A DNA stretch of 64,000 bases from Rhodospirillaceae bacterium (GTDB lineage Bacteria; Pseudomonadota; Alphaproteobacteria; UBA6615). The notes under the pieces were generated by a model that saw only the letters and a list, made by a program, of their open reading frames with translations, did not search any database and was not told the origin of the DNA. Of this stretch, positions 35,355 to 47,290 are shown one piece after another. The DNA is taken from positions 80,425 through 144,424 of the forward strand of contig JABIVD010000007.1 of NCBI GenBank assembly GCA_018667335.1. Direction: 5' to 3'. A program made the translations under genes and the position numbers. How positions within the stretch are numbered: position 1 is the stretch's first letter; every line of letters begins with the position of its first letter.

Positions 35355-36338
35355 CTACGCCACCCGCAGATAGTGCAACGAGAACAGATTGTTGGCGTCC
35401 GTCCAGTGGCGGAAGGCGCGCCAGCCGGCCTTGGCGGCGAGCGCGTGGAACTCCTCCACGTCGTATTTGTGGGAATCCTCGGTGTGGATCGATTCCCCGG
35501 CGGCGAACTTGAAGCTGTGGCCATCAATCCGGACGTCCTGGTCCCAGTCGCTCACCAGATGCATCTCGATGCGGCCCTGATCCGCGATCCAGCGGGCATC
35601 ATGGGTGAAGCCATCCAGATTGAAATCGCCGCCGAGCTCGTCATTCACCCGGCGCAGGACGTTGAGATTGAATTCCGCCGTCACGCCGGCCGCGTCGTTG
35701 TAGGCCGCATGCAGAATGCTCATATCCTTGCGCAGATCGACGCCGATCAGGAGGCCGTTGTCGGTCCCGAGATCCGTCGCCGCGGCGCGCAGGAAATCCA
35801 CCGCCGCCGGCCGCGTGAAGTTGCCGATGGTCGAGCCCGGGAAAAATCCGATCCGCGCTTCGCCGCCCGCGATCTCCGGCAATTCAAACGGCTGGGTGTA
35901 GTCGGCCGCAATCGGCACAACCGGCAGATCGGGATAGGCGCCGGCGAGTGCCTTGGCCGATTCCAGCAGATGCTCGCGCGAGATATCGACGGGGATATAG
36001 GCCGCCGGGGTCTCGAGCGCGTCGAGCAGGATGCGGATCTTGGTGCTCGAACCGCTGCCGAACTCGACCACGCTGGCGTTGGCGCCGATCAGCTCGGCGA
36101 ATTCCGCGGCATGGGCCTGCAGCAATCCCATCTCGGTGCGCGTCGGATAATACTCCGGCAGTTCGCAGATCGCATCGAACAGCTTGGAGCCGCGTTCATC
36201 GTAGAAATACTTGCTGGAGAGCTTCTTCTGCGACAGCGCAAGCCCCTCCAGAACATCATCCAGGAAGCTGTCCGCCGCATGGTCGTACTCCACATAGTCG
36301 TGGAGTGGACCCAAGCTCACCGCCGTGGCCCCGCTCAT
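35355..36338 (-). CDS. egtD: L-histidine N-alpha-methyltransferase (ergothioneine biosynthesis)
   Basis: YFYDERGSKLFDAICELPEYYPTRTE and EFGSGSSTK match the EgtD (DUF2260) signature. Overlaps the egtB stop. Confidence 0.8.
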   Translation of the reverse strand: MSGATAVSLGPLHDYVEYDHAADSFLDDVLEGLALSQKKLSSKYFYDERGSKLFDAICELPEYYPTRTEMGLLQAHAAEFAELIGANASVVEFGSGSSTKIRILLDALETPAAYIPVDISREHLLESAKALAGAYPDLPVVPIAADYTQPFELPEIAGGEARIGFFPGSTIGNFTRPAAVDFLRAAATDLGTDNGLLIGVDLRKDMSILHAAYNDAAGVTAEFNLNVLRRVNDELGGDFNLDGFTHDARWIADQGRIEMHLVSDWDQDVRIDGHSFKFAAGESIHTEDSHKYDVEEFHALAAKAGWRAFRHWTDANNLFSLHYLRVA

Positions 36339-37708
36339 GTTGCTACTCCATCGTCGGCATCAGCGGCCAACCGCACACCGGCGAACACCCAGCGCATCGC
36401 GGGATAGAAGAAGTTCCGGTAGGTGGCACGGGTGTGCCCCTCGGGGGTCACACAAGCGCCACCGCGCAATACAAACTGATTGGCCATGAATTTTCCGTTG
36501 TACTCACCGACAGCGCCCGACACGGGCTTGAACCCCGGATATGGGACATATGGGCTCTGGGTCCACTCCCAGACATCGCCAAACATCTGTTCCGGCTGAT
36601 CGGGCGTCTCGCCCGTCGCCGGTGCCGTACGCAGCAGGCCGGACCCGACGAAGTTGCCCGCCACGGGCTGCTCACGGGCGAACACTTCCCACTCACCCTC
36701 GCGCGGCAGGCGCTTGCCCGCCCAGCGCGCATACGCGTCGGCCTCGTAGAGGCTCACATGGCAAACCGGCGCCTGATCGTTGACCTGCTGCAGTCCCGAC
36801 AGGGACATCGCGCACCATTCGTCGTCGACGGTCTGCCAATAAAGCGGCGCGTCCCAACCTTCAGCACCCACAGCAGCCCAGCCGTCGGACAACCACAGTT
36901 CAGGGCGGCCATAGCCGTTGTCGGCCATGAATTCCTTCCACTCGCCGTTGGTCACCAGCCGCGACGCCAGCCGGAACGGCGCCAGATGGACGCTGTGACG
37001 CGGCCCTTCATTGTCGAAGGCGAACTCGGATCCCTCATGACCGATCTCGACCAGCCCGCCATCATGATCGAACCAGCGCAGTTCGGGGGTCTTGCGGGCC
37101 GGTGAGGCGCGATAGGCCTGATAAGCCGGCGCGACGCTGTTAAACGAGAACGCGTGGAGAATATCCATCAGGATCAATTCCTGATGCTGCTGCTCGTGGT
37201 GCAGCCCCAGCGCAATCAACGGCGCGATCTTGTCCCATGTCGCCTCGTCAGCACCCGCGATGAGGCTCCGCATCGCGTCGTCGACATGGGCACGATAGGC
37301 CTTCACCTGGTCGGCGGTCGGGCGGGTCAGCAGCCCGCGCTCCGGGCGCGGATGGCGCGCGCCGACGGCGTCGTAATAGGAATTGAACAGAAACAGGTAG
37401 TGCGGATCGAGCGGCGCATAGCCGGGTGCGAAATCCCGCAGGATCATGGTCTCGAAGAACCAGGTGATATGGGCGCGGTGCCATTTGGTCGGGCTGGCGT
37501 CGGGCATCGACTGCACGACCTGATCTTCGGCCGACAATGGTGCTGCCAGGCGCTCGGTCTCGCCGCGCACCCAGTTGAAATGATCGAGAACCTGATCCCG
37601 GTCGCGCGGATGCGCGTCGAGGATCGCCGGCTCGGACCCCAAGGATGTCACGGCGCTTCTCCTGTTGGCGCCCGCGTCCCGCATGACCGCCTGTCCGGGA
37701 CACTTCAT
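36335..37708 (-). CDS. egtB: hercynine oxygenase / sulfoxide synthase (ergothioneine biosynthesis)
   Basis: DinB_2-like N-domain (HFNWVRGETERL...) followed by an FGE-sulfatase-like C-domain. Start is ambiguous among 37720 (TTG), 37708 and 37684. Confidence 0.8.
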   Translation of the reverse strand: MKCPGQAVMRDAGANRRSAVTSLGSEPAILDAHPRDRDQVLDHFNWVRGETERLAAPLSAEDQVVQSMPDASPTKWHRAHITWFFETMILRDFAPGYAPLDPHYLFLFNSYYDAVGARHPRPERGLLTRPTADQVKAYRAHVDDAMRSLIAGADEATWDKIAPLIALGLHHEQQHQELILMDILHAFSFNSVAPAYQAYRASPARKTPELRWFDHDGGLVEIGHEGSEFAFDNEGPRHSVHLAPFRLASRLVTNGEWKEFMADNGYGRPELWLSDGWAAVGAEGWDAPLYWQTVDDEWCAMSLSGLQQVNDQAPVCHVSLYEADAYARWAGKRLPREGEWEVFAREQPVAGNFVGSGLLRTAPATGETPDQPEQMFGDVWEWTQSPYVPYPGFKPVSGAVGEYNGKFMANQFVLRGGACVTPEGHTRATYRNFFYPAMRWVFAGVRLAADADDGVAT

Positions 37709-41599: not shown

Positions 41600-41616
41600 G
41601 TAAGTCTGACGTAAGT
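41600..41616 (+). promoter_or_regulatory. direct repeat GTAAGT-CTGAC-GTAAGT (11-bp periodicity), candidate response-regulator binding site
   Basis: Lies 55 nt upstream of the GTG start of the first island gene. OmpR-family regulators bind ~10-11 bp-spaced direct repeats. Confidence 0.2.
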
Positions 41617-41671: not shown

Positions 41672-42310
41672 GTGCTGAAAGTTTTTCCTGCCGCTCTCGG
41701 CGGTGCCTGCGTTGTCCTGTCCCTGCTGACCAGTGTCGCGATTGCCGATGACGGCCTTACCTTCACAGTCATGCGCAACGGAGACGAGATCGGGACCCAC
41801 GAGATCGAAATAACCTCGCGCGGAGATCGCATGGAGGTCGAGATCGAGACAGAAGTGGCCGTGAAGCTGGCCTTTATCACCGTCTACAACTTTGACCACG
41901 AAGGACATGAGGTCTGGCAGGGTGGTCGGCTCGTTTCCTATGAGTCCCGCACGGACGATGACGGGACCGAGAAGTCGCTGCGCGCCAGAGCGGCTGGAGA
42001 TCATCTGGCCGTAGATGGTTCGGCGGCAAAGCGGAATGCGCCCGCTTCGGTCATCCCGGGCAGTCTCTGGAATCAGGCAACCGTGGCCCAAAGCAAGCTC
42101 ATGAATTCGCTGGATGGCAGCGAAATGGCGATCGCCGTCGCAGATCTGGGTGATGAAGATGTTGTGGCCGGCGGGAAATCTCTTCGTGCGCGGCACTATT
42201 CCCTGACCGGCGACCTACAGCGCGAGGTTTGGTACGATTCTGCGGGTCGGCTGGTGAAGGTTCGGTTTTCCGGCTCCGACGGCTCTGATATCCAGTATCT
42301 TCTGAAATAG
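41672..42310 (+). CDS. secreted/periplasmic hypothetical protein (first gene of low-GC island)
   Basis: GTG start with signal peptide MLKVFPAALGGACVVLSLLTSVAIA. No family recognised. Lies 44 nt upstream of the response regulator gene. Confidence 0.45.
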   Translation: MLKVFPAALGGACVVLSLLTSVAIADDGLTFTVMRNGDEIGTHEIEITSRGDRMEVEIETEVAVKLAFITVYNFDHEGHEVWQGGRLVSYESRTDDDGTEKSLRARAAGDHLAVDGSAAKRNAPASVIPGSLWNQATVAQSKLMNSLDGSEMAIAVADLGDEDVVAGGKSLRARHYSLTGDLQREVWYDSAGRLVKVRFSGSDGSDIQYLLK

Positions 42311-42353: not shown

Positions 42354-43052
42354 ATGCGGGTTTTGCTGATCGAGGACAATGTTCGGCTTGCCGGTTTCGT
42401 CGCCAAGGCGCTCGGTGCTGCGGGCTTCACGACAGATCATTGTGATTGCGCGGGTGACGGCGAGGCAGCGCTCGATACTGTGAGCTATGAGGCGCTGGTG
42501 CTTGATCTGGGTTTACCCGACGATGACGGGATGAACGTGCTCCGGCGGGTGCGGATGCAGAGGCCCGAGTTACCGGTTCTGATCCTGACCGCGCGCGATG
42601 GCGTTGAAGACAGGGTGGGTGGCCTGAATGCCGGAGCTGACGACTACCTGCTCAAGCCCTTTGCCATGGAAGAACTCATCGCGCGCCTCAATGCGCTGAT
42701 GCGTCGTCCCGGTAGCGCACTGGGTCGACGGCTGATGATCGGCAATCTGACATTTGATTCGGTGGGTCGGGAAGTCACCGTCGCGGAAACCGTTCTGAGA
42801 CTCACACGACGAGAAATGTCTGTCCTCGAATTGCTCATGCGGCGTGCGGGAAGGGTCGTACCCAAGGACGCACTGGCCGAAAGCGTCTATGGGTTCGACG
42901 AAAATTTTGGAGCGAACTCGATTGAGGTCGCCGTTCACCGTTTGCGCAAGCATCTGGAAGAGTCCGGTGCAGACTCTAAAATCCAGACGCTACGCGGGAT
43001 CGGTTATTTGCTTGTGGAGCCCCCAAACGAGATCAACGAGGCGGCCTCGTGA
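42354..43052 (+). CDS. OmpR/PhoB-family response regulator
   Basis: Receiver domain with acidic pocket and phospho-Asp (LVLDLGLPDDDG), plus a winged-helix C-terminus. GAGGAA SD. Confidence 0.85.
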   Translation: MRVLLIEDNVRLAGFVAKALGAAGFTTDHCDCAGDGEAALDTVSYEALVLDLGLPDDDGMNVLRRVRMQRPELPVLILTARDGVEDRVGGLNAGADDYLLKPFAMEELIARLNALMRRPGSALGRRLMIGNLTFDSVGREVTVAETVLRLTRREMSVLELLMRRAGRVVPKDALAESVYGFDENFGANSIEVAVHRLRKHLEESGADSKIQTLRGIGYLLVEPPNEINEAAS

Positions 43053-44431
43053 GGCGCTCCCTTCTCGGGCAACTGGTCGTGCGGCTTCTGGCCGTAACGC
43101 TTTTCTTCATTGCCTTATGTGTCGGAGCACTGCTGTTTCAGTTCGTCGAGCAGGTCGAGACCCTGCGTGACCGCGACCTGTCGGGACAAGCGCGCGATAT
43201 CGCCAACCATCTCGAAGTGACCCCGGATGGACGCGCATCCCTGCGCCTGCCGGATGCGCTGCGTGACGCTTATGATTCCAGCAACGGTATGTTTCTATTT
43301 GCGGTCCTCGACGACTCCGGAGCCGCGATCTTTACCTCGCGCGATGCAGGTGGTCCGATCGCGATCGGACCGGATGGCGGTCCGGCGCCGGACGAACCGT
43401 TTCAGGTGAGCCGCGTGATTGAGGGTGGATCGGACGTTTTCTATGGCATTACGGTGCCGGTCACCCGGGCGGAAAAGGCATTCTTCATTCAGGTCGCACA
43501 GGGACCCGGGCATTCGGATGCGCTGGCCGACGAGTTTCTCAACGAGCTCTGGGAATATGCGGGGTGGCTGCTCGCGATTCTTGTGATCCTGATTCTGGGT
43601 GTCGTCTATATAACCGTCCGGTCATCGCTGCGCCCGGTCACTGAAATATCGCGCCAGGCTGCTGCAATCACGCCGGCAACACTCCATGCCCGTTTAGGGG
43701 TGCGGGACCTCCCGCGCGAGCTCAGTCCTCTCGTTGAAGCTGTTAACAACGCCTTCGAGCGGATCGAGACCGCCTACCGTCAGCAGCGCGAGTTCACCGA
43801 CAATGCGGCGCACGAGATGCGCACACCTCTGGCTGTGCTTCGCGCGCATATAGAGAGCCTCAATCTCACTGATACTCTTTTGCCCGATGTTCTGCGGCTT
43901 GAACGGATTGTGGAGCAACTCTTGCGCTTGGCGCGGGCAGACAATCTGGCTCTGGCCAGCGATGCGCGGACTGACCTTAATCTTGTGGCCACTCAGGTGG
44001 CCGAGATGCTCGCGCCGGACGCCGTGCGTCGTGGTGTGGATTTTGGGCTGGAGCCGTCCGGTCAACCCGTCATCGTCCGCGGGGATGGTGACTATCTGTT
44101 TATTGCACTGCGTAATCTCGTGGAGAATGCCTTCAATGCTGCGGGACGGAGCGGGCGCGTGCAGATCATGGTGACCGATCCGGCAACAATCCGTGTCGTA
44201 GATTCGGGCCCGGGTATCCCGGTTGCCGACCGAGACCGGGTATTCGAGCGATTCTGGCGTGCCGATACCGCTTCTGATACAGGCGCGGGCTTGGGACTTT
44301 CCATCGTACGCCAGATAGTCGAGACCCATGGCGGATCCTGCACGGTCGGCGCAGATTCCGGGGGCGGTGCGGTTTTCACGATAAATCTACAGGCCGTTTC
44401 TCCTGCCCCGGAAAAAACTTCGGCCCTGTAA
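43049..44431 (+). CDS. sensor histidine kinase (TM - periplasmic - TM - HAMP - HisKA - HATPase_c)
   Basis: H-box AAHEMRTPLAVL and G-box GAGLGLSIV. Overlaps the RR stop. Confidence 0.85.
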   Translation: MRRSLLGQLVVRLLAVTLFFIALCVGALLFQFVEQVETLRDRDLSGQARDIANHLEVTPDGRASLRLPDALRDAYDSSNGMFLFAVLDDSGAAIFTSRDAGGPIAIGPDGGPAPDEPFQVSRVIEGGSDVFYGITVPVTRAEKAFFIQVAQGPGHSDALADEFLNELWEYAGWLLAILVILILGVVYITVRSSLRPVTEISRQAAAITPATLHARLGVRDLPRELSPLVEAVNNAFERIETAYRQQREFTDNAAHEMRTPLAVLRAHIESLNLTDTLLPDVLRLERIVEQLLRLARADNLALASDARTDLNLVATQVAEMLAPDAVRRGVDFGLEPSGQPVIVRGDGDYLFIALRNLVENAFNAAGRSGRVQIMVTDPATIRVVDSGPGIPVADRDRVFERFWRADTASDTGAGLGLSIVRQIVETHGGSCTVGADSGGGAVFTINLQAVSPAPEKTSAL

Positions 44432-44505
44432 GTTTGTTGTAAGCACCACACCGCATCTTTGCCCCAACGCTCACCTCCCGAGCGTTCCACCACAGCGGGC
44501 ATGTA

Positions 44506-45096
44506 ATGCATTTTTCAATCATCTCCACGCAGCACCCGGATCGCGCACGAGCTGAATCCGGTATCGAGGACGTTTATCAGCGCCGTTACGGATGCTCGGT
44601 TCCGTCATTCGCGCCGCATCTTGCCGTTCTATCTGGCGCTGATGGCAATGTTCTGTGCGCTGCAGGTGTGCGACTTGGCGGAGAGCAATTTTTCTCTGAA
44701 TCCTACTTTGACACGCCTGCTGAGACTTTGGCGGCGAGGGCGTTGGGCCGTCCTGTCGACAGGTTCGAGATCGTCGAGATATCCACCCTGGCTGCCGTAC
44801 GGAGTTGTGCAGCCGGTCCGTTCCTCAGTCAGCTCGTCAATCGCACACGAGAACTGGGAACCAGCATGCTGTTGTTCACGGCAACCGGACGACTGCGGAC
44901 CTACCTTCAACGTAATGGTGTTTCTCTCATTGAGCTTTGTCCCGCTGATCCGGCCCGGCTTTCCGGGCAGGATGGCTGGGGGACTTACTTCGATCATGAT
45001 CCGGTTGTCTGTCTGTCTCCCGATACAGTCGCGCGCCCCTTCACCCTTGCCCCACCGGCCAGTCTGGCAGGTCAGCGTTTACGGGTTGCCGCCTGA
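44506..45096 (+). CDS. small GNAT-fold candidate acyltransferase (T_hemolysin / LuxI / FeeM-like clan)
   Basis: 196 aa. Core EIVEISTLAAV resembles the LuxI/N-acyl-amino-acid synthase EL-S-R-F-A motif. Family assignment is from memory and unverified. Confidence 0.4.
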   Translation: MHFSIISTQHPDRARAESGIEDVYQRRYGCSVPSFAPHLAVLSGADGNVLCAAGVRLGGEQFFSESYFDTPAETLAARALGRPVDRFEIVEISTLAAVRSCAAGPFLSQLVNRTRELGTSMLLFTATGRLRTYLQRNGVSLIELCPADPARLSGQDGWGTYFDHDPVVCLSPDTVARPFTLAPPASLAGQRLRVAA

Positions 45097-46610
45097 TGTC
45101 GGTCACGATTGGTAACCTTCGGGAATGGGCGCGGACCCGCGCGCAGGAACCGGCCCTTAATGACGGTACGATCCGGATCACCTACGGAGAGCTTGCAACG
45201 CGTGTCGGTGGGTTTGCAGCGGCGGCAAAAACGTTCCCAAAGATTGTCGGTGTCCTCGGAGAAAATTCCGTGGATTGGGTGATTGCCGATCTTGGTCTCA
45301 TGGCAGCCGGACGCACATTTGTGCCGTTGCCGACGAGTTTCTCGAAGACTCAATTGCAGCACGTCATCGCCGATGCCCGGGTCGGACTGGTTCTGCATGA
45401 TGTCGACTCCGCGCAGAAGGCGGCAGAGTTGGATGGCCAAACGCGAGGACTGGATGACCTGACCCGGCGCAGCGCGCCCCTGCGCGACGCGTCTATCGCA
45501 TCTGGGCTGCCCAACCGGATTATCTATACGTCGGGCACGACTGGCGCGCCCAAGGGCGTGAAAATTGGGCAGCCACAAATCGACTTTATGGCCCGTGCGC
45601 TGGCAGATGCCATCGGTGCAGGTCCGCAGGACCGCTACATGTCCGTTCTGCCCTTTGCGCTCCTGCTGGAACAACTCTGCGGCATTCATGTCCCGGTTCT
45701 GGTGGGGGGTGAAAGTCGGCTGGTGCCGTCGGTGGCGATCGCGACAGCGCGCGGCCAGCCATCCGATCTTGCGGGGGCTGCATTGGAAGTCCGCCCCACG
45801 GTCAGCGTCATGGTACCGGCGTTGCTGGGGTTGTGGCTTGCAGGCCTCGACCCCGTGGCTGGGGCACCCGACAGCCTGCGTTATGTCGCGGTGGGCGGGG
45901 CGCCGGTTGCACCCTGGCTCGCCCAGGCAGCATGGGAGGCGGGTATTCCTGTCCACGAAGGCTACGGCCTGTCCGAATGCACTTCGGTTGTCGCTCTCAA
46001 TCGCTTTGGCGAACGGGTTGCGGGGACGGTTGGCCGACCATTGGACGGGATAGACGTCACGATCAGCGAGACCGGAGAAATCATCGTGTCAGGCCCGTCG
46101 ATTATGGACGGATATCTGGGAGGCAAGAATGCTTCGGCCAGTTTGTTGACGGGTGATTTGGGGGCGATCACGCCGGCGGGACATCTGGTTGTTCATGGTC
46201 GGTGCGACAATGTTCTGGTGACCGCATTCGGTCGCAATGTCAGTCCGGAATGGATTGAGCCCATGCTGATCGCTGATCCCCGCATAGAGCAGGCGGTCGT
46301 TCTTCTGGACAGTGAATTGAAACTGACGGCCCTGCTCGGCCTCAATGACGAAGGCATGGCGTGGGCGGCCCGGATGGCCCCGGACGAACTTACCCAGCAC
46401 GTAGTGGCGTTGTGCCGGGATGCCCCGGCTTATGCCCGCCCCGAACGAGTTGCGATCCGTCCGGTGAATGATCTTCTCACCAGCGGTGTTGTGGGGCCAG
46501 GCGGGCATATCGACCGCCGCTGCGCTGTGGACTGCCTGCCCGACATCGATGCCCGGTGCGTGACGAATCCTATGGATGAAACCCGGAACATGGAAAGTGA
46601 AACCGTATGA
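45096..46610 (+). CDS. ANL-superfamily adenylate-forming ligase (acyl/aryl-CoA ligase-like)
   Basis: A3 YTSGTTGAPKGV, A5 GYGLSECTS, A7 TGDLG and A8 GRCDNVLVTAFGRNVSPEWIE. The A10 Lys is apparently not conserved (see finding on the adenylation lysine). Start overlaps the upstream stop. Confidence 0.8.
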   Translation: MSVTIGNLREWARTRAQEPALNDGTIRITYGELATRVGGFAAAAKTFPKIVGVLGENSVDWVIADLGLMAAGRTFVPLPTSFSKTQLQHVIADARVGLVLHDVDSAQKAAELDGQTRGLDDLTRRSAPLRDASIASGLPNRIIYTSGTTGAPKGVKIGQPQIDFMARALADAIGAGPQDRYMSVLPFALLLEQLCGIHVPVLVGGESRLVPSVAIATARGQPSDLAGAALEVRPTVSVMVPALLGLWLAGLDPVAGAPDSLRYVAVGGAPVAPWLAQAAWEAGIPVHEGYGLSECTSVVALNRFGERVAGTVGRPLDGIDVTISETGEIIVSGPSIMDGYLGGKNASASLLTGDLGAITPAGHLVVHGRCDNVLVTAFGRNVSPEWIEPMLIADPRIEQAVVLLDSELKLTALLGLNDEGMAWAARMAPDELTQHVVALCRDAPAYARPERVAIRPVNDLLTSGVVGPGGHIDRRCAVDCLPDIDARCVTNPMDETRNMESETV

Positions 46611-47290
46611 GTTTTTTCGATCAGCTTGAATCTGAGACCAGTGAGGCTCGTGAGCGTTTCACCCGTATCCCTGTCATTTCACGCGCTCTGGCCGAGGGAG
46701 TCCCGATGGATCTGTACGTGTCCTATCTCGGGCAAGCCTATCACCATGTTCGCCACACCTGTCCGCTCCTCAGGGCGGCATTGGACAGATGTAATTCGGA
46801 AGACCGGGCGCTTGCCGGTGCCTTGCGCGAGTACATCCTTGAGGAAGAAGGCCACGAAGCCTGGATTCTCGATGACATCCGCGATCTCGTCGGACCCGCT
46901 ACGGTGGAGCACACCATCGAATACGAGGGCGATCCGCCCGTGCGTGCGCTGGTAGGCTTCATGTATGACGCCATCGCACGGCGTGGGCCCCATGCCATGC
47001 TCGGCATGGTCCATGTGCTTGAGGGTATGTCGGTCCAGCTGGCTGAAAAAGCAGCCGCGGCCATTGCCGGTCATATCGGCGAGACGCCGGACCAGGGGTT
47101 TCGATACATGATGTCTCACGGCAGTCTCGATCAGGAGCATGTCGTTTTCTTTCGAGACCTTGTTAACGACATATCGGACCCGGCCTCGCAGGCGCAGATC
47201 ATCGATACCGCGAACATGGTCTACTACCTTTGGGGCCGCATGTTCGACGAGCTTGACCAAAGCAATGAAGGTGCCTCCCGTGCCGCATGA
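46607..47290 (+). CDS. heme-oxygenase-like diiron oxidase (HDO; CADD/PqqC/TenA_C fold)
   Basis: Ligand-like pattern E...EEGH, then (56 aa) VLEG, then (32 aa) SHGSLDQEH, which is H-x3-D-x2-H. A Lys lies 9 residues after the second Glu. 4-nt overlap with the ligase gene. Confidence 0.5.
   Translation: MSFFDQLESETSEARERFTRIPVISRALAEGVPMDLYVSYLGQAYHHVRHTCPLLRAALDRCNSEDRALAGALREYILEEEGHEAWILDDIRDLVGPATVEHTIEYEGDPPVRALVGFMYDAIARRGPHAMLGMVHVLEGMSVQLAEKAAAAIAGHIGETPDQGFRYMMSHGSLDQEHVVFFRDLVNDISDPASQAQIIDTANMVYYLWGRMFDELDQSNEGASRAA

Follow-up and report, generated by a model that had tools for sequence, protein, structure and literature searches.

We analyzed a stretch of 64,000 nucleotides of genomic DNA from a Rhodospirillaceae bacterium (assembly GCA_018667335.1, contig JABIVD010000007.1, positions 80,425 to 144,424), hereafter called the window, with emphasis on a gene for a 196-amino-acid protein of the T_hemolysin family. 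The open reading frame (ORF), which runs from ATG to TGA, is present as described in the initial annotation of this DNA. It is followed by genes for an AMP-binding ligase, a heme-oxygenase-like di-iron oxidase (HDO) and a short-chain dehydrogenase/reductase (SDR), and preceded by genes for a periplasmic DUF6134 protein, a response regulator and a sensor histidine kinase (Table 1). We consider it well supported that the T_hemolysin protein is an enzyme and not a toxin, that it takes part in a four-enzyme pathway, and that this pathway is controlled by the regulator. Most likely, the protein is a cytoplasmic acyltransferase that makes a small acylated molecule.

Table 1. Genes and predicted regulatory sites of the cassette (window positions).
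Feature	Position	Strand	Evidence and remarks
T_hemolysin-family gene	44506..45096	+	ATG start, TGA stop, 196 aa; Pfam and AlphaFold2/Foldseek
AMP-binding adenylate-forming (ANL) ligase	45096..46610	+	Pfam AMP-binding, E 3.9e-53
Heme-oxygenase-like di-iron oxidase (HDO)	46607..47290	+	Pfam Haem_oxygenas_2, E 1.2e-18; ATGA overlap with ligase stop
Classical short-chain dehydrogenase/reductase (SDR)	47253 (TTG) or 47265 (ATG)..48065	+	Pfam adh_short, E 9.4e-49
DUF6134 periplasmic protein	41672..42310	+	Pfam PF19630; signal peptide; all-beta EipB/LolA-like fold
OmpR/PmrA-type response regulator	42354..43052	+	Pfam Response_reg and Trans_reg_C
Sensor histidine kinase	43049..44431	+	2CSK_N periplasmic domain, HAMP, HisKA, HATPase_c
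Regulator box 1, GTAAGTCTGACGTAAG	41600..41615	+	Two GTAAG half-sites 11 bp apart; 57 nt upstream of DUF6134 start
Regulator box 2, GTAAGTTTGTTGTAAG	44428..44443	+	Overlaps kinase stop codon; 63 nt upstream of T_hemolysin ATG

Membership of the protein in the T_hemolysin family (PF12261), which had been suggested in the initial annotation, was borne out by a match of 140.5 bits (cutoff 27; E 6.5e-41) that spans residues 8-170 and positions 3-167 of the 174-position model. By contrast to Pfam, no NCBIfam model matches the protein. The family comprises 2,035 clusters at 50% identity (E<=1e-3), and an identical protein is encoded in the marine Rhodospirillaceae metagenome-assembled genome GCA_018663685.1. 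In an alignment of 53 family sequences including the window protein, residues R13, E65, Y67, D69, R86, E91, R136, W158 and Y161 are invariant, and so is the FTAT motif F124-T-A-T127. No N-terminal signal sequence was found in the protein. Long homologues that resemble fusions of the T_hemolysin domain (P0224, P0248 and others) were set aside as probable products of mis-called starts.

An AlphaFold2 model built from 53 homologues (pLDDT 88, pTM 0.83) is disordered only in the last 15 residues and has the topology beta1-alpha-beta2-beta3-(insert)-beta4-alpha3-beta5-alpha4-beta6-beta7, a mixed alpha/beta arrangement of the GNAT type. Its best matches in a Foldseek comparison with the PDB were the acyl-homoserine lactone (AHL) synthases TofI (E 6e-9), MesI, LasI, RpaI and BjaI and the N-acyl amino acid synthase FeeM; E values in this group ranged from 6e-9 to 3e-5 and TM scores from 0.56 to 0.61, with up to 0.61 for FeeM. 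Ordinary GNAT acetyltransferases ranked behind them, with TM scores of 0.45-0.52. A total of 213 PDB entries matched at E<=1e-3, and the best 50 of these 213 are all GNAT-type acyltransferases or AHL/N-acyl synthases. The acyltransferase-type fold guessed initially is thus confirmed by the model, and the enzymes named at that time (LasI-type, RpaI, BjaI, FeeM) turned out to be the top matches. Both a family match (to T_hemolysin, placed in the GNAT clan by the initial annotation) and a fold related to acyltransferases were obtained, the two points on which that proposal had been staked.

The sequence motif from which the proposal had started did not fare as well. The segment in question, DRFEIVEISTLAAVRS, corresponds to residues 85-100, forms strand beta4 of the model and includes the family-invariant R86 and E91. 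Its likeness to WELSRFAI of LasI has no statistical backing, and we do not regard it as evidence because no link to LuxI emerged from Pfam, PDB sequence or hhalign comparisons. Of the Pfam models that were to be checked with hmmscan, T_hemolysin gave a match, and Autoind_synth and Acetyltransf_5 did not; neither these nor any other second GNAT-clan family matched one of the 53 T_hemolysin members at E<=10. The same holds for hidden Markov models (HMMs) of the FeeM type, the likeness to FeeM being one of fold only. PDB sequence searches with the single protein and with the 53-sequence profile yielded no matches, and hhalign against an alignment of LasI (sequence checked against 1ro5), TofI and BjaI returned a probability of 0.1% (E 0.49). 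LasI residues R23, F27, W33, D44, D47, R70, E101, S103 and R104 are invariant in that alignment and could not be aligned reliably to the window protein. E101, S103 and R104 of LuxI enzymes also lie on beta4; the putative equivalence with DRFEIVEISTLAAVRS is a topological one only.

The four biosynthetic genes overlap one another, by TGATG, ATGA and then 26-38 nt. As stated in the initial annotation, the ligase gene lies directly downstream of the 196-codon gene; its ATG overlaps the preceding stop codon by one base, and the two genes are translationally coupled. Comparison of the ligase with NCBIfam gave matches to fatty-acid-CoA ligase and MenE-type models, all of them below cutoff; the enzyme probably activates a fatty or other carboxylic acid. 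The start of the SDR gene is uncertain; with either candidate in Table 1 the gene overlaps the 3' end of the HDO gene. For HDO, the metal-ligand set E80-x2-H83, E139 and H171-x3-D175-x2-H178 (three histidines and three carboxylates) is invariant in 48 homologues. Its nearest solved relatives, all obtained as profile matches in the PDB, are the uncharacterized 3dde (5e-23), the 4-aminobenzoate synthase CADD (1.7e-6), MboA and AetD. The cassette HDO profile matches 3dde, a structural genomics entry described as 'TENA/THI-4 protein, DUF with heme oxygenase-like fold', over its full length. Judging from this match, 3dde may itself be the HDO of such a cassette, in which case a structure already exists.

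The role of the T_hemolysin gene as the first gene of the operon, also part of the initial annotation, appears reasonable because the gene has a dedicated regulator box 63 nt upstream. However, the kinase gene on the same strand ends only 74 nt before it, and read-through transcription may occur. Between box 2 and the start of the T_hemolysin gene, the leader (44453-44509) can fold into a stable hairpin (-19.9 kcal/mol, z = -3.3) with a core stem formed by 44466-44472 and 44480-44486 and an outer stem that pairs with the start codon. This hairpin could form the end of the kinase transcript or serve to control translation. Scans for sigma-70 promoters and terminators gave counts at or below shuffle expectation, and Rfam matched nothing in the window.

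Conservation of the cassette was assessed in 80 loci from species-representative genomes whose ORFs were scored with the window proteins; cassette counts refer to the 60 loci with at least 4.5 kb of downstream sequence, which stem from alpha-, beta-, gamma- and zetaproteobacteria. The ligase and the SDR are each encoded in 59 of the 60 loci. An oxygen-dependent iron enzyme occurs in all 60; HDO accounts for 48 of them and a TauD/TfdA dioxygenase for the other 12, and no locus has both. Since the two are mutually exclusive and one of them is always present, we regard this as a non-orthologous replacement, which argues for an obligatory oxidation step. A periplasmic partner, either DUF6134 or a TPR protein, accompanies the enzymes in 52 of the 60 loci. 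Regulator and kinase are adjacent to the cassette in 24 of 42 loci with 7 kb on both sides. In alphaproteobacteria, the window organism among them, the genes for DUF6134, regulator and kinase precede, in this order, those for the enzymes. The enzyme genes come first in beta-, gamma- and zetaproteobacteria and are followed by that for a TPR protein with a signal peptide and then often by regulator and kinase genes. The hosts include free-living marine, freshwater, methylotrophic and iron-oxidizing bacteria, among them the streamlined planktonic Polynucleobacter.

Variants of the cassette are instructive with respect to its enzymes. In Pseudoalteromonas donghaensis, ligase and HDO are fused to a protein of 719 amino acids with the domains AMP-binding, AMP-binding_C_3 and Haem_oxygenas_2 (locus L096, 7561-9720); cupredoxin and iron-transporter genes lie downstream of the Pseudoalteromonas cassette. 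A second natural ligase-HDO fusion was found in Azonexus (L035, 8521-10644). The Fe(II)/2-oxoglutarate dioxygenase of the TauD/TfdA type takes the place of HDO in loci of the Roseobacter group (L012, 10876-11736; L021, 6426-7292) and also in Streptomyces, Pantoea and Acinetobacter plasmids (L093, L094, L097). In the latter three, the T_hemolysin-ligase pair is kept and is accompanied by TauD, an AurF-like protein, methyltransferases and an MFS transporter; SnoaL-like and amidohydrolase genes are likewise found among these loci. The methyltransferases and the MFS transporter of the Streptomyces and Pantoea versions point to an exported small molecule. An ORF of 70 codons between T_hemolysin and ligase genes in Acinetobacter was considered as a carrier protein and rejected, as it is a ligase fragment. 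Methylophilaceae and relatives (L057, L068, L073, L079, L085, L088) have the four enzymes with neither TPR nor DUF6134 partner. In these loci, a different regulator/kinase pair with a larger regulator ORF is located on the opposite strand, about 4-5 kb upstream.

Regulatory genes near the T_hemolysin gene are those for the OmpR/PmrA-type regulator and the histidine kinase, and no LuxR-type receptor gene was found there. The kinase start overlaps the regulator stop by 4 nt. The best NCBIfam match of the regulator is PmrA (1.4e-61, below the curated cutoff) and its best PDB match is PmrA/BasR of K. pneumoniae (2e-49), whose DNA-contacting residues N188, V192 and H195 are conserved. Exact GTAAG-N6-GTAAG matches occur twice in the 64 kb, both on the plus strand and both in front of an operon, as compared with 0.01 expected from shuffles. 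A search of 1.15 Mb of related loci revealed 46 exact boxes, almost all of them on the coding strand and directly upstream of DUF6134 and T_hemolysin genes. These positions are kept in Roseovarius, Pseudophaeobacter, Hyphomicrobium, Rhodomicrobium and others, where T_hemolysin is only about 35% identical. In some Roseovarius-type loci, a third conserved box, GTAAGCAAGrCGTAAG, closely precedes the TauD gene and is located at the 3' end of the SDR gene (L010, 10801-10816; L011, 7388-7403; L016, 6004-6019; L021, 6371-6386).

Beta- and gammaproteobacterial loci carry the related sequence TTAA(G/T)-N6-TTAA(G/T) at a fixed distance of about 60-65 nt upstream of T_hemolysin, and CTTAAG-N5-CTTAAG is found at about -62 to -66 in Salinivibrio, Vibrio sp. 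HDW18, Pseudoalteromonas and Photobacterium. The PmrA box consists of two XTTAAY hexamers 5 nt apart and overlaps the -35 region (PMC10570014); with their TAA-core hexamers and 5-nt spacer, the boxes of the window and those of the beta- and gammaproteobacteria fit this hexamer pattern. The recognition helix of the regulator differs by locus type (SNT-EVHIH(H/N) versus PNAIEVA-HR) and shifts in step with the change of the box. On the strength of these sequence patterns, we infer that the GTAAG boxes are bound by the adjacent regulator, which would thereby exert direct control over the operon that encodes it as well as over the biosynthetic one. With a box before each of these two operons, the module would be self-regulating. 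A plasmid of Photobacterium damselae (L095, 6917-7510) carries a lone T_hemolysin gene, with no ligase, oxygenase or SDR gene, beside a gamma-mobile-trio gene; this lone gene keeps a perfect CTTAAG-N5-CTTAAG box at -63.

The AlphaFold2 model of the DUF6134 protein is all-beta (pLDDT 89). Its top Foldseek match is 6ntr, the Brucella EipB/DUF1849 protein (E 7e-6, TM 0.61); VioE and LolA matched less well. EipB itself, a LolA/LolB-like beta-spiral protein of the periplasm, is required for envelope integrity and is synthetically lethal with the periplasmic TPR protein TtpA (bioRxiv 10.1101/551135). That this place in the cassette is taken by an EipB-like protein in some lineages and by a TPR protein in others would, by analogy, be a striking parallel to the EipB-TtpA pair.

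The cassette is also found in vibrios and their relatives, where its first gene is annotated as thermostable hemolysin. In Salinivibrio kushneri and Vibrio sp. HDW18, the thermostable hemolysin gene is followed in turn by genes for an AMP-binding protein, an iron-containing redox enzyme, an SDR, a TPR protein, the regulator and the kinase; the part up to and including the TPR gene, five genes in all, is also found on a V. parahaemolyticus plasmid. In V. cholerae, dth (VCA1111) adjoins the gene of the ligase DthC, VCA1110 (PMC12208996). The name of the family goes back to hemolytic clones (cited in PMC12208996).

Taking the cassette and its regulation together, we propose the following pathway. 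Starting from a carboxylic acid, which is probably a fatty acid, the ligase would form the acyl-AMP or acyl-CoA. The T_hemolysin enzyme would then acylate an amine, for instance an amino acid or a substrate similar to S-adenosylmethionine (SAM), to yield an amide-linked amphiphile. The iron enzyme (HDO in the window, TauD in other lineages) and the SDR would be responsible for oxidation and redox tailoring, for example hydroxylation and subsequent formation of a ketone. The PmrA-like regulator would bind the tandem GTAAG half-sites, spaced by 11 bp, in front of the sensor and biosynthetic operons. In the periplasm, the product would be handled by the LolA/EipB-like DUF6134 protein, or by the TPR protein elsewhere. 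Sensing of the product by the kinase would then complete a positive-feedback loop like those of autoinducers whose synthase genes lie beside that of a sensor kinase.

We tentatively favor this entire chain, that is, a self-regulated pathway for an oxidized acyl-amide amphiphile that serves as an autoinducer-like signal sensed by the kinase, because of the signal-synthase fold, the location of the synthase gene beside that of the sensor, the double autoregulatory boxes and the exporter-bearing variants. The initial annotation had likewise suggested an acylated signal molecule, an idea to which the cognate two-component system, the conserved boxes and the periplasmic lipid-carrier-like partner add weight. 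A bolder generalization, which we put forward with some doubt, is that the cassette represents a widespread and so far unrecognized proteobacterial system of cell-to-cell signaling that consists of an oxidized N-acyl signal made by the four enzymes, a periplasmic LolA/EipB-like or TPR protein as its carrier or presenter, a PmrB-like kinase and PmrA-like feedback on both operons.

Several observations weigh against the favored explanation as a whole. Regulator and kinase are not located beside the cassette in about 40% of the well-flanked loci, and a carrier protein, an exporter and LuxR are all missing from the cassette. No sequence-level link to LuxI or FeeM is detectable by Pfam, PDB profile or hhalign comparisons. 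The ligase has no obvious canonical A10 lysine; the window protein reads GPGGHIDRR at residues ~465-475, homologues have LT-x-NGR-x-x-R and the Roseobacter versions AGTPDRR, with only G470 and R474 conserved. The homologue motif is, we presume, reminiscent of fatty-acid ligases of the ACSL/FAA1 type. PmrA-type systems classically modify the envelope, specifically its lipopolysaccharide (LPS), rather than serve in signaling (PMC10570014), and EipB as the nearest structural relative of DUF6134 is an envelope-integrity factor (bioRxiv 10.1101/551135). A study of V. fluvialis reported that delta-VFH, as a purified recombinant protein, is secreted, binds lipids and is itself cytotoxic (PMC11033176). 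Finally, no product, substrate or activity is known for any member of the T_hemolysin family. We found no paper on an enzymatic role, the cassette, the regulator box or the periplasmic partner in a literature search that did not cover subscription journals.

Some of these points fit a role of the cassette in envelope remodeling, an explanation that accounts for the data nearly as well as a signal does and that we consider possible, if somewhat doubtful. In that case, the same enzymes would make an amide-linked aminolipid or lyso-aminolipid comparable to lipids of the ornithine-lipid type that are subsequently hydroxylated, the DUF6134 or TPR protein would ferry this lipid across the periplasm, and the PmrAB-like system would respond to an envelope or metal stimulus, with the product being an output and not an input. 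The closest relative of the regulator is PmrA/BasR and the boxes are PmrA-box-like; the known PmrA regulon concerns LPS modification, and pmrCAB is autoregulated (PMC10570014). DUF6134 resembles EipB, which interacts genetically with a periplasmic TPR protein, and the periplasmic partner is more tightly linked to the enzymes (52/60) than are regulator and kinase (24/42). An amphiphilic product would moreover account for the hemolysis reported for cloned Vibrio genes. However, the cassette contains neither a second, O-acylating acyltransferase nor a flippase, and the Streptomyces and Pantoea versions with their MFS exporter resemble small-molecule clusters. Likewise, the nearest folds are those of signal synthases and not of membrane-lipid enzymes, although FeeM-like N-acyl synthases are included. 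The same Streptomyces, Pantoea and Acinetobacter variants, with TauD, AurF-like, methyltransferase, SnoaL-like, amidohydrolase and MFS transporter genes, and the cupredoxin and iron-transporter genes behind the Pseudoalteromonas cassette are what one would expect if an exported bioactive secondary metabolite (a surfactant, an antibiotic or a metal-binding compound) were made and the two-component system regulated its synthesis with no sensing of the product. We consider this improbable in view of the small size and great uniformity of the proteobacterial cassette, its occurrence in streamlined planktonic genomes such as that of Polynucleobacter, and the retention of a dedicated periplasmic partner and a regulator box.

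Still less probable is the literal analogy with BjaI and RpaI, according to which the protein would be a true SAM-dependent AHL synthase fed with acyl-CoA by the adjacent ligase. The CoA-dependent enzymes MesI, RpaI and BjaI do rank among the top structural matches, and CoA-type luxI genes can have linked genes for auxiliary enzymes (PMC10470506). Yet FeeM and ordinary GNATs match nearly as well, there is neither an Autoind_synth HMM match nor any profile similarity, the LuxI-invariant residues could not be aligned reliably to the window protein, and no gene for a LuxR-type receptor is located nearby. That the annotation is literally correct and the protein is a secreted, membrane-damaging hemolysin seems very unlikely to us, despite the origin of the family name in hemolytic clones (as cited in PMC12208996) and the report that recombinant delta-VFH is secreted, binds phosphatidylserine, phosphatidic acid and phosphoinositides, and kills cells (PMC11033176). 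Fold, operon context and ecology of the family all fit poorly with a toxin: the protein has no signal peptide and a compact globular GNAT fold with no membrane-inserting architecture; its invariant polar residues are at enzyme-like positions; ligase, oxygenase and SDR are obligate operon partners in 59-60 of 60 loci; and the genes are present in free-living marine, freshwater, methylotrophic and iron-oxidizing bacteria. A lipid product that co-purifies with the protein could explain the activity reported for delta-VFH.

The label 'thermostable hemolysin' has spread through thousands of genome annotations and virulence-gene surveys. A LuxI/FeeM-fold enzyme tied to a ligase/oxygenase/reductase operon alters the meaning of this gene in pathogens and free-living bacteria alike. 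If the signaling function proposed here is true, the 'delta-thermostable hemolysin' virulence gene of Vibrio and Aeromonas surveys would be a signal synthase. Its product may represent a new class of acylated signals or envelope lipids, and this can be put to the test: the cassette is compact, has a predicted regulator box and is present in tractable hosts such as Vibrio, Salinivibrio, Massilia and Xanthomonas.

Downstream of the cassette, the window (48140-50923) contains a gene for a 421-amino-acid SulP-family transporter with no STAS-domain match, followed by a gene for a class III nucleotidyl cyclase. The G+C content of this segment is 0.54 as compared with about 0.63 elsewhere, and in one metagenome variant (L004), the transporter gene is immediately followed by an integrase fragment. 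The segment is probably a strain-variable insertion beside the cassette. Further upstream, on the minus strand at about 35355-37684 (corresponding to L001, 850-3179), lie adjacent Methyltransf_33 and DinB_2/FGE-sulfatase genes, a pair that we take to be typical of EgtD/EgtB and hence of ergothioneine synthesis.

Among known systems, the delta-thermostable hemolysins of Vibrio (delta-VPH, Dth/VCA1111, delta-VFH) are among the closest; they belong to the same Pfam family and the same cassette and have a PmrA-like box upstream. They differ in that they are described as toxins and are only ~25-35% identical to the window protein; moreover, the window has DUF6134, regulator and kinase genes upstream and a GTAAG instead of a CTTAAG box. 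LuxI-type AHL synthases such as BjaI, RpaI and MesI are similar to the window protein in modeled structure, size and the presumed use of an activated acyl donor, and linked auxiliary enzymes are possible there as well (PMC10470506). By contrast, there is no detectable sequence or profile similarity, LuxR is missing from the window cassette, and oxygenase and SDR are obligatory components of the cassette. FeeM and long-chain N-acyl amino acid synthases have the GNAT/LuxI-like fold in common with the window protein (TM up to 0.61), with no HMM match between them. When cloned in E. coli, genes for FeeM-type enzymes give rise to amphiphilic, bioactive products. FeeM uses acyl-acyl carrier protein and, to our knowledge, has no dedicated ligase, oxygenase or SDR.

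With respect to the neighborhood of synthase and sensor genes, CqsA/CqsS, LqsA/LqsS and PhcB/PhcS-PhcR are precedents in which a signal-synthesis gene lies beside that of a membrane histidine kinase and the signals are lipid-like. The chemistry of CqsA, LqsA and PhcB is unrelated, as these are pyridoxal phosphate-dependent enzymes or a methyltransferase, and their kinases are polytopic. The window kinase differs from CqsS, LqsS and PhcS in its periplasmic 2CSK_N domain and in the presence of a partner protein in the periplasm. PmrA/PmrB (BasR/BasS) provides the closest solved regulator, shares the tandem TAA-core hexamers with a 5-nt spacer and autoregulates its own operon; it differs in that its known targets modify LPS, and the half-site in the window is GTAAG with a recognition helix altered to match. 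With EipB (DUF1849) and TtpA of Brucella, the cassette shares an EipB-like periplasmic beta fold in DUF6134 and the substitution of a TPR protein in other lineages, yet EipB belongs to a separate Pfam family, has not been reported beside biosynthetic genes, and resembles DUF6134 at the level of the fold only. The T_hemolysin family as such is already known from Pfam, and the system studied here reads as a putative acyl-amide synthase of the LuxI/FeeM fold that is wired to a PmrA-type two-component system and not to LuxR.

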